Shown here one piece after another: positions 3,911 to 16,439 of a DNA stretch of 28,734 nt. The stretch is from Candidatus Eiseniibacteriota bacterium (GTDB lineage Bacteria; Eisenbacteria; RBG-16-71-46; SZUA-252): the NCBI GenBank assembly GCA_046716305.1, contig JBKJXM010000380.1, positions 1 to 28,734 of the forward strand, written 5' to 3'. A program made the translations under genes and the position numbers. Below the pieces are notes generated by a model. That model made no database searches and was not told the origin of the DNA. It saw only the letters and a program-made list of their open reading frames with translations. How positions within the stretch are numbered: the first letter of the stretch is position 1; each line of letters opens with the position of its first letter.

Positions 3911-6496
<2,586 letters not shown>

Positions 6497-6567
6497 GCGG
6501 TCCCTTTCCCTACGAATCTGAGGCGGCGGCTTTGATGCTAGGGCAGCGGCTTGGGAGACGACCGGCC

Positions 6568-6576
6568 ACGGTACCA
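6568..6576 (-). promoter_or_regulatory. Putative extended -10 promoter for lon (TGgTACCGT)
   Basis: TGnTAnnnT lies about 70 nt upstream of the lon ATG. The same motif type occurs upstream of the M16 and S11 genes. Confidence 0.3.
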
Positions 6577-6600
6577 CACACCCCCGCCGCTAGGCCAGCC

Positions 6601-6740
6601 GCCCCCCTGGAATCCGTTCCGCCGCCACCGACAAAACGACGGGCCACCAGGGGGGCTTCTTCCGATGGCCCATCGGTCCGCCTCTCCCGCCTCCAGGGGT
6701 TCGCCCTCCCTGCAGACGGCGCCGCGTAGTGAGCGCGGCG
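6601..6740. other. Cluster of inverted repeats (structured intergenic segment)
   Basis: GCCCCCCTGG 6601-6610 / CCAGGGGGGC 6647-6656 (perfect 10 bp); CCGATG/CATCGG 6662-6676; GGG-TTCG-CCC near 6698-6707; CGCCGCG 6720-6726 / CGCGGCG 6734-6740. Confidence 0.5.
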
Positions 6741-6755
6741 TTGCTGCTTACCGGC

Positions 6756-6827
6756 TTACCAGCCGGCCTTGCCGCCGTCTGGATTTCCGAAGGACAGGAA
6801 GATCGCGATCAGGATCAGGGCTTCCAC
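6756..6827 (-). CDS. 23-aa hydrophobic micropeptide, downstream copy (MEALILIAIFLSFGNPDGGKAGW)
   Basis: GTG start at 6827 after SD GAGAGGGGGTG, TAA at 6756-6758. The protein is identical to the copy at 6901-6972 despite 7 nucleotide differences. Confidence 0.8.
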   Translation of the reverse strand: MEALILIAIFLSFGNPDGGKAGW

Positions 6828-6900
6828 GCTGTCACCCCCTCTCTTCTGTTTCGGGTTCGCTGCGTTAGCTACGGGCACTGCGTTTCGACTTGCTTGCTGC

Positions 6901-6972
6901 TTACCAACCGGCCTTGCCACCGTCCGGGTTTCCGAAGGACAAGAAGATCGCGATCAGGATCAGAGCTTCCAT
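6901..6972 (-). CDS. 23-aa hydrophobic micropeptide, upstream copy (MEALILIAIFLSFGNPDGGKAGW)
   Basis: ATG at 6972 after SD GAGGTG, TAA at 6901-6903. It is the last 23 codons of the track ORF 6901..7119. Confidence 0.8.
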   Translation of the reverse strand: MEALILIAIFLSFGNPDGGKAGW

Positions 6973-7043
6973 TTGCCACCTCATCTGGTTTGGGTTTGTC
7001 GCCTTGCCTCGCGGCTGCGAGGGCTTCGACGCGAGGGTTACAA

Positions 7044-7059
7044 AGCAGTCGCCGTGCCA
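7044..7059 (-). promoter_or_regulatory. Sigma54 (RpoN) -24/-12 promoter upstream of the micropeptide pair
   Basis: The minus strand reads TGGCACG-GCGA-CTGCT against the consensus TGGCACG-N4-TTGCW: one mismatch, correct 10-nt spacing between GG and GC. Predicted +1 is near 7033, about 60 nt before ATG 6972. Confidence 0.65.
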
Positions 7060-7289
7060 TTTGCAAATCACGGGAATTCTGAAGCCATAACCACTTATCA
7101 TTACGAGTGTTACGGGCATCGCGTTTTGCGAGGTGATCGAAGAGGGCGGGGGGCGAAAGTGTCTGAATCAGGTTACTATTTCGAATTGGCGCCGTAAGTG
7201 GCTTGGTTAACGAACGTTATGGATGTCGTTGAATCTTGACGGCACCTGTCCGCGCCGCTTGTCTCCCCGGGGGTGGCTCTGGCGGAGGA

Positions 7290-9167
7290 TCAGCTAGCGA
7301 GCGAGAGGGGCACGTCGCCCCCTGGCGACTCTTCCGATTCGGCGGGAGGGAGTGGGAGCACGATGGTGAACGTGCTTCCCCGTCCGACTTCGCTCTCCAC
7401 GCGGATCTCGCCGCCGTGGGCCTCCACGATGCCGCGCGCGATGGACAGGCCCAGGCCCAGGCCGGACGAGTTGAACTGCGTCGTGCCGGAGGAATGCAGG
7501 TTCACGTCCTTCAGCTCGACGATCTTGGCGAAGATCTTCTCGAAGTCCTCCTTCGAGATTCCGATCCCGGTGTCGGTGACGTAGATCTCGACGCCGCCGG
7601 CCCCTGCTCCGGACTCGCCCCCCGCTCCGCGCCGCGCCCCGATCTCGATCGATCCGCCATCCTTGGTGAAGCGCACGGCGTTCATGGCCAGGTTGGTCAC
7701 GGCCTGCTTCAGGTAACCGGCATCGATCCGCGGGTGCTTCAGGTCGGGCTCGATGGCGATGGAGACGATCTGGCTCCGGTCGGCGGCGAGCGAGACGGTT
7801 TGCACGGCGACTTCCTCGACCAGCGCGCCCACGTCGACCGCGGCGAGCTGGACCGGCAGCCGGCTCCGGTCGATCAGCGACATGTGGGTGAGGTCCCGCG
7901 CGAGCCGCGTCAGCACGTCCGCCGCGTTCTTGATCGCCCGAAATCCCTCCCGCTGCATGTCCGAGACCGCGCCCGCCGTTCCGTCGCTCATCAGATCGGC
8001 GTAGGCGCGGATGGTGGTGACGGGCGTGAGGATCTCGTGCGAGGCGATGGCGATGAAGTCGGACTTCATGCGGTCCACCTCCTCCAGGCGCTCGATCTCG
8101 TGCCGCTGCGACTCGCGCATCGCCTCGAAGTGCGAGGCCAGTAGGCCCATTTCGTCCTGGGAGGTGACCGCGAGCGGGTAGTCGTAGTCTCCCTCGCGCA
8201 TCGCGGTCGCCGCTTCCACGATCCGCCGCACGGGACGCGTGATGCCGCTGGAGACCAGGAAGCCGATGAGGAGCGCCATCACGATCAGCGCCGCGGCCGC
8301 GAAGGTGAGGTCGCGGCTGATGCGCCCGAGGACCGCGGTTTCCTCGTCGAGCACCCGAAGGAGAACGAACCCGACGCTCCCGCCCGAACTGGGGCCGTCG
8401 AGCCGCCCCGACAGCGTGAGGAACCGGCTGTCCCCGTCATCCACGCGGGCCACGCCCGCCCGGGCCGGCTCCGAGGCGAGCCGTTCCGCCAGCCCGCTCC
8501 GAAGGGTCGTCCGGATCAGGGTCTTCCCGTCCACCACGAAGATGACGTCGCTGCGCGTCGTGGCCCTCAAACGCTCGGCGAGAGGCTGGTCGATGGTGCG
8601 CCCCAGGGTCAGGGTCCCGGCCAGCTCCCCCTGAACCAGGATCGGGACGGTCGCGACGCGGTAGGCACGGTCTCCTTCGACCAGGTATCCGCGCCCCGCG
8701 CGCCCCGCGATCGCGTTCTTGACGAGCGTCCAGCGCGACCGGTCCGCGCCGGGAGGGTCGGCTTGCCCGGCCCGGGCGAGCACGACTCCGTGCTCGTCGG
8801 TCACGTCGAAGAGAGGCGCCTCGGCGTCGTGCTGGAAGTCGCGCGCCACTCCGAGGAGGGTCTGGTAGAAATCGGCGTCCTTGCGATCGGCCCGTGGCAG
8901 GATCAGGAGGGCGAAGAATTTCGGATCTCGCGCCACGACCACGCCGATCCGCTCGAGGTTCTCTCCCTCGCGGGCCATCTGGTTCTCGAACGCGAGGGCG
9001 GCGCGGGAGAGGTCGGCCGTGACGGTGTGGTTCACCTCGTCGGCGAGGCGCCGGTTCACCACGAAGAGCGCCGCCACCATCACGCCCAGGATCGGCAGCG
9101 AGGTGAGCGCCGTGATCTTGAGAAGGAGGGAGATGCGCGGGCGCCGGGTCACGGGCCTCCCCGTCAC
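7290..9167 (-). CDS. Membrane-bound sensor histidine kinase (TM - Cache-like periplasmic domain - TM - HAMP - HisKA - HATPase_c)
   Basis: H-box FIAIASHEILTPVT, N-box QAVTNLAMNAVRF, G1 DTGIGI, G2 SGLGLGLSIARGIVEAHGG, HAMP 'ITRPVRRIVEAATAMREGDY...DEMGLLA'. Start placed at GTG 9167, which overlaps the upstream TGA; GTG 9152 is an alternative. Confidence 0.95.
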   Translation of the reverse strand: MTGRPVTRRPRISLLLKITALTSLPILGVMVAALFVVNRRLADEVNHTVTADLSRAALAFENQMAREGENLERIGVVVARDPKFFALLILPRADRKDADFYQTLLGVARDFQHDAEAPLFDVTDEHGVVLARAGQADPPGADRSRWTLVKNAIAGRAGRGYLVEGDRAYRVATVPILVQGELAGTLTLGRTIDQPLAERLRATTRSDVIFVVDGKTLIRTTLRSGLAERLASEPARAGVARVDDGDSRFLTLSGRLDGPSSGGSVGFVLLRVLDEETAVLGRISRDLTFAAAALIVMALLIGFLVSSGITRPVRRIVEAATAMREGDYDYPLAVTSQDEMGLLASHFEAMRESQRHEIERLEEVDRMKSDFIAIASHEILTPVTTIRAYADLMSDGTAGAVSDMQREGFRAIKNAADVLTRLARDLTHMSLIDRSRLPVQLAAVDVGALVEEVAVQTVSLAADRSQIVSIAIEPDLKHPRIDAGYLKQAVTNLAMNAVRFTKDGGSIEIGARRGAGGESGAGAGGVEIYVTDTGIGISKEDFEKIFAKIVELKDVNLHSSGTTQFNSSGLGLGLSIARGIVEAHGGEIRVESEVGRGSTFTIVLPLPPAESEESPGGDVPLSLAS

Positions 9168-9844
9168 TCGCCGCCGAGGACGAGCGGAGTCGTTCCCTCC
9201 GCCGAGACGTCGACCGCGGCGGTCCGCTCCCCGCGACGCGGGAGCCACAGAACGACGGTGTGTTTCCCCGCGGGCGCGTCGTCGATGCGGAAGCGTCCGT
9301 CCGCGCCGACGTAGCCGAAGCGGCGGCCGGGCACGACCACGATGTCGGAGCGCATGTCCGAATGGATGTCGCAGAAGACCTGGACCAGCCCGGCCTTCTG
9401 GAACGTCAGCCGCTTCGATTTTCCCCGCGGGTATCGCCCGAGATCGAACCGCTTGGGCGGGGAGTACGAGAAGACGTTGTGGAAGACGTTGTCGCTGTTC
9501 CGGAACTCGACCGCCTGCCCCACCACGACCGCAAGAATCCGAGGAATGAACCTCTGGCCCTTCTGGTCGAGGAGGATGGGCGGGGGCGGGGGCTCCTGCG
9601 CGGACGCGACGTCGGCGAGATAGGCGACGCCGTAGGTGGTGTCGGATGGAACCACGGATCCGGAATTGCCGGCGCTTCCGCTGAGCTGTCCCACGTACGC
9701 ATTCGGTCGAGGTCCTCCGCGGAACGAGAGGTCGGCCGGGGCGAGCGTCACCGTCCCCACGATCGTTCCGGCAACGGCTGGGTTGGCCAGGAGCAAGCTC
9801 AGGAGCACGGCCCCGGCCTTTGGGTTGAACCGCATGCGCCTCAT
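9164..9844 (-). CDS. Secreted cupredoxin-like protein with a C-terminal carboxypeptidase-regulatory-like beta-sandwich
   Basis: Signal peptide MRRMRFNPKAGAVLLSLLLANPAVA, 'LDQKGQRFIPRILAV', and type-1 copper-like ligands H (VFHNV) and C-x2-H-x2-M (FCDIHSDM). SD GAGGG precedes ATG 9844. Only this 3' end of the 1055-aa track ORF looks like a real gene. Confidence 0.85.
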   Translation of the reverse strand: MRRMRFNPKAGAVLLSLLLANPAVAGTIVGTVTLAPADLSFRGGPRPNAYVGQLSGSAGNSGSVVPSDTTYGVAYLADVASAQEPPPPPILLDQKGQRFIPRILAVVVGQAVEFRNSDNVFHNVFSYSPPKRFDLGRYPRGKSKRLTFQKAGLVQVFCDIHSDMRSDIVVVPGRRFGYVGADGRFRIDDAPAGKHTVVLWLPRRGERTAAVDVSAEGTTPLVLGGE

Positions 9845-15698: not shown

Positions 15699-16439
15699 AT
15701 GAGATGGTCTCAGGCATTGCGGCCGACCTGGAGCTTGGCGGCTCTGGGGTTGGCGCTGTCGCTCCTGGTCGCCCCCATGGCGGCGAGGGCGCAGGATGAT
15801 GATGAGGACGACCAGGACAACGGGCGTTCCGGTACGGTTCGGATCTACGAGTCCCCCGGGTCACGAGACGACAATTCCGCCGCCCAGAGAGGCGGCTACC
15901 TCGGCGTTCAGGTGCAGGACGTCACCCGCACGCTCCAGCGGGCGCGAAACCTCCCCACCGAGCAGGGGGCCATGGTCAGCCGCGTGGAGCAGAACAGCCC
16001 CGCGGACCGGAGCGGGATCCGCCGCGGCGACGTGATCGTCGAGGTGAACGGAGACAAGATCGAGGATTCGGCCGATCTGATCCGCACTGTCCGGCGGCTC
16101 GACACCGGCGAAAACGCTCGTATCACGTTGTGGCGAGGCGGCTCCCTTCGGACGATCACCGCCGAGCTGGGTGAGCGCCCTCCTCAAAGCCGGCCGGACA
16201 TGCCGCCCGACATGGGCCGCCGATCGGGCAACGACGAGGACATTCCGATGCCGCCGAGGCAGCCGTCCATGGGCGATCGCGGTTTCGGCGATCGCGACCA
16301 GGTTCGGCAGCAGATCCGGGAGCTCCAAGATCAGCTCCGGCAGCTTCGCGAGGAGATGCGGGCGCTCCGCATGGAGCTCAGCCCGGTACGCGATAACGGA
16401 GACGACGACAGCCGCACGCGCAACGATCGGGACGACTAG
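15699..16439 (+). CDS. Exported single-PDZ-domain protein (DegP/HtrA-type PDZ without a protease domain) with a C-terminal coiled coil
   Basis: SD GGAGGT and a signal peptide ending ARA-Q. PDZ: 'GGYLGVQVQDVT...GAMVSRVEQNSPADRSGIRRGDVIVEVNG'. Heptad segment: 'VRQQIRELQDQLRQLREEMRALRMEL'. Confidence 0.88.
   Translation: MRWSQALRPTWSLAALGLALSLLVAPMAARAQDDDEDDQDNGRSGTVRIYESPGSRDDNSAAQRGGYLGVQVQDVTRTLQRARNLPTEQGAMVSRVEQNSPADRSGIRRGDVIVEVNGDKIEDSADLIRTVRRLDTGENARITLWRGGSLRTITAELGERPPQSRPDMPPDMGRRSGNDEDIPMPPRQPSMGDRGFGDRDQVRQQIRELQDQLRQLREEMRALRMELSPVRDNGDDDSRTRNDRDD

Follow-up and report, generated by a model that had tools for sequence, protein, structure and literature searches.

Two minute open reading frames on the minus strand of the window (the whole 28,734-nt stretch of Candidatus Eiseniibacteriota DNA analysed here) encode the same peptide, which raises the question of whether frames this short are genes at all and, if they are, what their products might act upon. 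The first of them, pepA (6901-6972), begins with ATG and the second, pepB (6756-6827), with GTG; each is 72 nt long, ends in TAA and is translated as the 23-aa peptide MEALILIAIFLSFGNPDGGKAGW, and the two starts lie 145 nt apart. Besides the start codon the copies differ at six third codon positions (A3 GCT/GCC, L11 TTG/CTG, N15 AAC/AAT, P16 CCG/CCA, G18 GGT/GGC and G22 GGT/GGC, pepA before pepB), all six of them synonymous, so that the identical products and the lack of any non-synonymous change reported in the initial annotation are confirmed both by the coordinates and translation and codon by codon. By the Nei-Gojobori method 6 of the 16.7 synonymous sites of the pair differ and none of the 49.3 non-synonymous ones (pS 0.36, pN 0); on the assumption that roughly one random change in four is synonymous, six out of six would arise by chance with P ~2e-4. 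The strong Shine-Dalgarno sequence claimed for each copy is likewise present, GAGGTGG at 6982-6976 for pepA and AGGGGGTGA at 6840-6832 for pepB, and the spacer between them (6828-6900, minus strand, 73 nt) has diverged as described over most of its length but not in a CA-rich tract and the Shine-Dalgarno sequence, which are both kept. These are the only two copies in their own genome, a 2.43-Mb MAG that is 93% complete. A perfect palindrome, GATCGCGATC, lies inside both ORFs at 6947-6956 and 6802-6811.

The tandem pair is a feature of the family to which this genome belongs, a search of 60 relatives having found it in all four genera, and 48 homologous ORFs from 24 related loci made up the set for the coding analysis. 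Exactly two ORFs with a KAGW-stop end are present at every one of the 24 loci, and GKAGW followed by the stop codon forms the C-terminal end of all 48. The residues of this motif are invariant whilst their codons are not (GGC, GGA, GGT or GGG for the first Gly, GCC, GCT, GCA or GCG for Ala, GGC or GGT for the second Gly); over all pairs the motif has a pS of 0.38 and a pN of 0, and for paralogs within a genome the values are a pS of 0.43 and a pN of 0.115. A start codon with an upstream Shine-Dalgarno site of the GAGGTG- or AGGAGGTG-type is found in 48/48. Because variation at the invariant residues is confined to wobble positions, pS is far greater than pN and each ORF has its own Shine-Dalgarno sequence, we conclude that the peptide is translated and selected and, as judged from the sequences, that pepA and pepB are real protein-coding genes under purifying selection. 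The first ten codons of the peptide ORFs have nearly the same nucleotide sequence throughout the genus, which may be due to strong codon bias or to partial gene conversion. It was also observed that the two paralogs of one genome often have a common linker (LADGSGG, TTLPPPGG or DNTGGG) despite many synonymous differences, which points to parallel or concerted evolution, with simple recent gene conversion not being a full explanation.

The design that had been recognised in the window, a hydrophobic stretch followed by a polar tail with a terminal Trp, is kept across the family, with peptides ranging from 18 to 28 aa in length. The two parts evolve very differently; the hydrophobic half and the linker are fast-evolving and variable in length, whereas the GKAGW tail does not change. 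The uncharged core has 10-17 residues (median 13) and a mean Kyte-Doolittle hydropathy of 2.5, and is short for a full span of the membrane. The linker that joins it to the tail is short, flexible and rich in Gly, Pro or Asp, its polar part being 0-5 residues long, such that some peptides carry the tail directly on the helix with no linker. Outside the motif there is no Lys or Arg, Cys is absent altogether and the GG pair ahead of the Lys is not found in every peptide.

The stop codons of these ORFs are as distinctive as their last residues. TAA is used by 42 of the 48, TAG by 6 and TGA by none, in contrast to the confident ORFs of the window's own genome where TGA accounts for 53% of stops, TAG for 35% and TAA for only 12%; the loci are related and formal probabilities would therefore overstate this bias, which is nonetheless large. 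Of the three stops it is TGA, when it follows TGG, that tRNA-Trp most readily reads through, and we read its avoidance here as probable selection for exact termination after the Trp.

The two ORFs belong to a bicistronic unit of ~400 nt that was shown to be self-contained, sigma-54-dependent and bounded by a terminator. On the minus strand the region from the stop codon of the upstream kinase gene to the promoter (7060-7289, alignment of 23 loci) is AT-richer, with conserved repeats of the GTCA..GACA type as well as a palindrome (GCA-N-TGC) and an IHF-like tract of A/T, and from this composition we infer a putative enhancer region. It is followed by a sigma-54 promoter, TGGCAC-N5-CTGCT (7044-7059), with the -24 GG and -12 GC at the correct spacing and a predicted transcription start near 7033. 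The promoter is found at the same distance in 23/23 related loci with upstream sequence, in 37 of 39 metagenome contigs and also in a copy of the unit from a genome outside the family (G050, described below). A strict scan of the window's own genome for sigma-54 promoters identified 13 sites, that of the unit included and others at genes such as those for pilin and a pilM-like protein, and the upstream motif of the unit was present at none of the other sites. The same genome encodes rpoN and ~17 enhancer-binding proteins, all on contigs other than this one. The 5' leader (6973-7033, minus strand) is made up of a small stem-loop (~7022-7007), an unpaired tract rich in CA and the GAGGTGG Shine-Dalgarno sequence of pepA.

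Downstream of pepB, RNAalifold on 18 loci together with the alignment revealed a conserved hairpin with a GGGCGAAC loop (6691-6715, minus strand) in all of the four genera but g3, which has a different hairpin in its place, and the distance from the pepB stop to the first hairpin varies widely between genera. Next comes an intrinsic terminator (6631-6680, minus strand), a GC-rich stem of GGGCCATCGG and CCTGGTGGCCC that is extended at both ends and followed by a GTCGTTTTG tail, whose consensus structure has compensatory changes between genera (RNAalifold and alignment); a simple terminator scan missed it since its loop exceeds the 8-nt limit of that scan, and it is the consensus fold that supports the assignment. 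A 27-aa ORF in the terminator region, beginning MGHRK, was rejected as a further gene, as it is not conserved and has a stop within it in one relative. The alignment shows a further highly conserved block before lon, GGCTGGCC ... GTGTGGTACCGTGGCCGGTCGTC (6556-6606, minus strand), ending in GTGTG(A/G)TACCGTGGCCGGTCGTC; this is probably a promoter of the extended -10 type that belongs to lon itself, or else an operator.

The unit also appears to be expressed in nature. Contigs from relatives ~92% identical were found in four soil metatranscriptomes; two of these contigs run from 7002 through the unit and its terminator into the first ~100-130 nt of lon, and two others end at 6620/6621, just past the T-tract of the terminator. 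Position 7002 is a contig end ~30 nt downstream of the predicted sigma-54 start, and no metatranscriptome contig covers 7003-7400. One run had a word depth of 17 on the unit against 2.9 on a piece of lon, and part of the unit occurs in 19 RNA-type runs. As the contig boundaries are sharp these data argue for a real and abundant transcript in soils, the contigs being strandless and DNA carry-over formally possible.

In keeping with its presence in all four genera, a phylum-wide scan for the tandem tail pattern matched 35 of the family's 40 species genomes but only 1 of the 166 outside it, with no match for the reversed-pattern control. The sole genome outside the family, G050, is 4.5 Mb in size and belongs to another family. 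A collection of species genomes gave 22 matching records, nearly all labelled Candidatus Eisenbacteria, and the architecture recurred in 39 contigs of soil or sediment origin from a metagenome collection. Six soil MAGs that carry the unit (L038, L045, L048, L050, L053 and L058) are labelled Omnitrophota, Thermoanaerobaculia, Dormiibacterota, Acidobacteriota, Limnocylindrales or Binatia; five of these six loci also have a Lon 74-93% identical to that of the window, L045 being too short to show lon, and these public labels are probably wrong.

Annotation has passed the family by, as the initial annotation had supposed when it proposed purifying selection on a translated peptide that gene callers would miss; the wobble pattern, the pS and pN values and the unnamed database entries all agree with that proposal. 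A protein database of 5.8 billion clusters, searched with a 54-aa extended ORF, returned only three extended-ORF calls, one being the window's own contig, and the sole source name among the three is 'hypothetical protein'. Neither Pfam nor NCBIfam contained a family matching the peptides or the extended ORFs, and a CydS-like match to one member of 40 (E 0.063) was taken as noise. There were no Rfam matches at the gathering threshold over the whole window, and a search of the full-text literature for 'GKAGW' gave irrelevant matches only.

What the peptides might act upon is first suggested by their neighbours. Downstream, with its start 150-260 nt from the unit in most loci, lies the gene for a divergent LonA paralog (3911-6496, minus strand, Pfam), the true and conserved start of which is MSKRTPAE at 6496; its N-domain has the motif LMST..QVRIEQS and an exact-protein look-up returned no record. 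After the proteolytic domain this Lon has a C-terminal tail of ~70 residues (3911-4130) that is extremely rich in Lys and Arg, unusual for LonA, and which could bind nucleic acid or polyphosphate. Three proteins with a LON N-domain are encoded by the window's own genome (the window itself and contigs C269 and C236; loci L164 and L165), namely the divergent Lon just described, a canonical LonA on contig C269, in which the LPLRD...PLLVGR motif is kept, and a protein of ~226 aa that consists of the N-domain alone. Among 70 genomes sampled the divergent LMST..QVR type was present in 17/17 of the family, and one other family, represented in the sample by a single genome, has a 47%-identical relative. 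Upstream is a sensor kinase gene with the domains dCache_3-HAMP-HisKA-HATPase (7290-9248, minus strand, Pfam; 9167 is a possible alternative start).

The unit can occur apart from either of these neighbours. In two genomes (G015 and G018), as in further species and contigs from their genus-level group, a distance of 4.6-6.3 kb separates lon from the unit; it is filled by genes for outer-membrane proteins, of which one is on the opposite strand, and the sensor gene, promoter, both ORFs, hairpin and terminator are kept together; the GTGTATGAT-type block instead accompanies lon. The intervening island encodes an OMP beta-barrel, a FadL/TodX-like protein and Omp85 (L084 2700-7300; L085; L042 1471-6623; L045). 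In total the unit persists without an adjacent lon in at least five lineages. The divergent copy in G050 sits between MFS and MatE transporter genes, the MatE exporter gene being divergently adjacent, with no kinase or lon nearby and no gene downstream of its terminator, yet it has the sigma-54 promoter, two 23-aa ORFs with the GKAGW-TAA end and, in the same place, a classical terminator of different sequence. Across the loci examined the neighbours are the kinase, Lon, and outer-membrane proteins or transporters; the kinase is upstream at each family locus that extends far enough to show it, and no gene for a maturase, receptor or protease-exporter is conserved nearby.

Since the tail is invariant and the hydrophobic half drifts, it would seem that the peptides have a specific docking epitope rather than a simple membrane activity, and they probably dock on a partner protein by way of the tail, with the Lon protease as the leading, unproven candidate. 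The N-domain of Lon binds a C-terminal aromatic residue together with its carboxylate, by Arg29 and a pocket of Leu12, Ile15 and Leu25, and it has been proposed that docked degron peptides provide hydrophobic surfaces that activate the protease (PMC11882793). Our tentative reading, plausible though short of an even chance, is therefore that of a trans-acting micro-protein whose Trp-COOH tail would dock in this pocket. Induction from the sigma-54 promoter would yield two peptides acting in trans; the invariant tail with its free carboxylate would be the docking epitope, inserted into the pocket for C-terminal residues, the oily half would supply a Lon-activating hydrophobic surface or tether Lon at the membrane, and the target could be the divergent paralog next door or the canonical Lon. 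A more particular form of this proposal, in which the peptides are encoded 'free degrons' with the tail plugging the pocket and the oily half either activating the protease or anchoring a specialised Lon paralog to the membrane, is slightly more speculative again; the outcome would be a sigma-54-inducible quality-control protease, and the peptides would be the smallest known dedicated regulators of an AAA+ protease.

There is a precedent in LarA, the heat-shock activator of Lon in Caulobacter (PMC10665427, PMC11882793), which is also a small product of a stress promoter with an aromatic C-terminal residue, from an organism that like those studied here has LonA. LarA inserts its terminal side chain and free carboxylate into the conserved N-domain pocket of Lon, after which proteolysis is stimulated by a hydrophobic surface that LarA exposes. 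The Trp-stop found in 48/48 ORFs and in both of those in G050 is what the class of LarA-type and degron peptides requires, and the probable selection for exact termination would fit a need for Trp-COOH. LarA, however, is a folded protein of 89 residues that is not encoded in tandem and of which only the last residue is specifically bound, whereas the peptides have 18-28 residues, are largely membrane-like, end in five invariant residues and are under sigma-54 control, and their binding to Lon is an inference only. There is no sequence homology between the two and 23 aa cannot share an 89-residue fold.

The Lon proteins themselves provide evidence in both directions. In a HMMER alignment to 9jwa_B (Caulobacter Lon numbering) the columns of Leu12, Ile15, Leu25 and Arg29 are occupied in the adjacent Lon by Leu, Thr, Ile and Ile, and an Arg one column before the Arg29 position is invariant across the family. 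The kept Leu12, the hydrophobic residue at position 25 and the neighbouring invariant Arg, together with the pocket motif of the canonical LonA and the proximity of lon in most loci, favour docking on Lon; the Ile at the Arg29 column and the Thr at the Ile15 column count against it. So too do the five invariant residues, against the single one of LarA, which suggest a more demanding and possibly different receptor, the lineages in which the unit has no adjacent lon, and the lack in G050 of a Lon N-domain of the family type. Furthermore, adjacency to lon within one family may be no more than inherited gene order instead of functional coupling, and a 13-residue uncharged stretch would be expected in the membrane, where other partners are plausible. 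A coupling of the family-type Lon N-domain to the peptides was considered and rejected, G050 having only N-domains of the canonical type.

Such a membrane partner could be the sensor kinase next door, and that the peptides are small membrane-protein modulators of it, with feedback in the manner of MgrB or SafA, is an unlikely explanation but the one that survives best after Lon. MgrB and SafA are small membrane regulators of the kinase PhoQ (PMC2789325, PMC8404706), and as small hydrophobic single-helix proteins that modulate a sensor kinase they resemble peptides whose genes adjoin a sensor kinase gene. The hydrophobic half would then pack on the transmembrane helices of the kinase and the tail would touch its juxtamembrane or sensor surface, which accords with a peptide that is hydrophobic and uncharged but for one Lys, and with the linkerless tails, which suggest action close to the membrane. 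At every family locus long enough to show it, moreover, the gene immediately upstream is that of the dCache_3 sensor, even where lon has been displaced. Against this, the unit of G050 has no kinase nearby and the homolog of the sensor domain in that genome is weak (E 8.5e-9), many families without the peptides having better ones; a phyletic coupling of kinase and peptide was rejected accordingly, as homologs of the dCache_3 sensor are widespread in such families. No regulatory loop can be drawn either, since homologous kinases adjoin SpoIIE-type phosphatases and not sigma-54 activators (in three other families, two of the three kinases and none of the three, respectively). MgrB itself differs in being 47 aa long, in having a functional periplasmic domain that contains Cys and in belonging to the regulon of the kinase that it inhibits; the peptides have no Cys, their unit also occurs without a kinase and their regulatory loop is hypothetical. 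A complex prediction for kinase residues 28-400 with the peptide gave a score of zero, which counts neither way.

Two further observations concern the kinases alone. Orthologous dCache_3 sensors are present in genera g3 and g4 (L100, L102 and L084), the kinase domains falling below Pfam detection in some genera, and these may be degenerate or fast-evolving kinases. In other Eisenbacteria families dCache_3/HAMP kinase genes are followed directly by a gene for a SpoIIE-type PP2C phosphatase (L157 1832-5814; L158 3785-7636), which suggests a kinase-to-phosphatase signalling pair.

If the membrane itself were the target the peptides might be toxins. The Ibs/Sib, Ldr/Rdl and TisB/IstR systems encode hydrophobic peptides of 19-35 aa, often in tandem and of narrow distribution, and type I toxins in general have an antisense RNA, repressed translation and constraint on the membrane-active helix. 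Tiny hydrophobic tandem peptides within a narrow taxonomic range, with one copy in a foreign genomic context, bear a likeness to such loci, and would on this account depolarise the membrane when a stress promoter is induced; we consider this improbable. The constraint falls on the polar tail and not on the hydrophobic half, a conservation pattern that argues against the type I toxin offered in the initial annotation. The Shine-Dalgarno sequences are strong and unsequestered, folding of the whole transcript is unexceptional (z = -0.6), and the spacer, a possible site for an antisense RNA, has diverged; no conserved element was found on the opposite strand at the unit, where the RNA contigs are strandless, and no sigma-70-type promoter on either strand of it. 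It is also a fixed core locus in 35/40 genomes, with a transcript that is abundant in situ.

It is marginally less probable still that the peptides are precursors of an exported signal or of a RiPP or cofactor, with the KAGW tail cleaved, or its Lys and Trp cross-linked as in streptide, by an enzyme encoded elsewhere. In streptide the Lys-Trp cross-link is made by a SPASM radical-SAM enzyme, and pqqA is a gene of ~23 aa with its own hairpin and a high transcript level. Very short peptides with an invariant K-x-x-W flanked by Gly residues, a short and highly expressed transcript with its own terminator and, in G050, the adjacent MatE exporter gene all recall such systems. The proposal of a RiPP with a K-x-x-W tail was nevertheless weakened by the analysis, as SPASM radical-SAM proteins (PF13186) have no match in the window's own genome and match in only 1 of 41 family genomes, and no gene for a maturase, protease-exporter or receptor occurs in any neighbourhood examined. 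In contrast to streptide-type precursors and PqqA there are no adjacent biosynthetic genes, the hydrophobic 'leader' is atypical for such precursors, there is no basic N-region and no Cys, and the GG pair before the Lys is not universal. A pheromone of the SHP/Rgg or ComX type, which had also been suggested, lacks the hallmarks of its class, there being no basic N-terminus and no receptor or modification gene (Rgg, ComQ) or exporter among the neighbours. Of the four hypotheses first put forward the best fit is that of a small modulator acting on Lon or on the kinase, although adjacency to either neighbour has turned out not to be obligatory.

The unit precedes lon on their common strand, a terminator separating the two, and this position invites the explanation that these are cis-acting leader peptides, such that their translation, or a stall at GKAGW-stop, would govern how often transcription passes the terminator into lon. 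Two metatranscriptome contigs do cross the terminator into lon, and an invariant C-terminal motif beside the stop codon resembles arrest peptides. We regard this as very unlikely. Lon has its own conserved promoter-like block that moves with it, an oppositely oriented gene may separate lon from a unit that is still whole, G050 has nothing downstream of the terminator, the distance from the pepB stop to the hairpin differs widely between genera, and stalling would not need a conserved hydrophobic character. Leaders of the TnaC and SecM type are ORFs obligatorily upstream in the transcript of the gene that they regulate, whereas the peptide unit has its own terminator and lon its own promoter block; the two peptides are the only conserved cargo of the transcript, and a purely cis-acting role is therefore excluded at least for G050 and the genomes with a displaced lon.

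That the conservation is due to an sRNA or to a gene on the opposite strand is the least credible explanation, for which there are the opposite-strand frame a1, open in 45/48 cases, and the precedent of sigma-54-driven sRNAs beside two-component genes (Qrr, CrcZ), and against which stand the wobble-only variation at invariant residues, the conserved start codons and Shine-Dalgarno sequences, stops in all other reading frames of either strand in at least 3/48 cases, and the lack of an Rfam match or of excess folding energy, so that RNA structure or the opposite strand, named at the outset as what might better explain the pattern, is most unlikely to do so. A dual function of the RNA beside its coding role is possible.

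The remainder of the probability lies with partners other than Lon or the kinase. A remote candidate is encoded at 15699-16439 on the plus strand, where a cell-wall operon that includes genes for an S11 carboxypeptidase and an M23 peptidase begins with the gene for a PDZ-domain protein of 246 aa; since C-terminal tails are what PDZ domains bind, this protein could be an alternative receptor for the Trp-COOH tail.

Whichever partner is the true one, this is a conserved, expressed and strongly selected family of micro-proteins that gene callers have wholly missed, in a phylum that has no cultured member. With an invariant C-terminus of five residues, a leaky stop codon that is strictly avoided and a sigma-54 promoter in control, it presents an unusually well-defined target for further work. 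Should docking on Lon prove to be true, the role of the C-terminal-residue pocket of the Lon N-domain would be extended to dedicated micro-peptide regulators; should it fail, the tail would still be a bait for the true partner.
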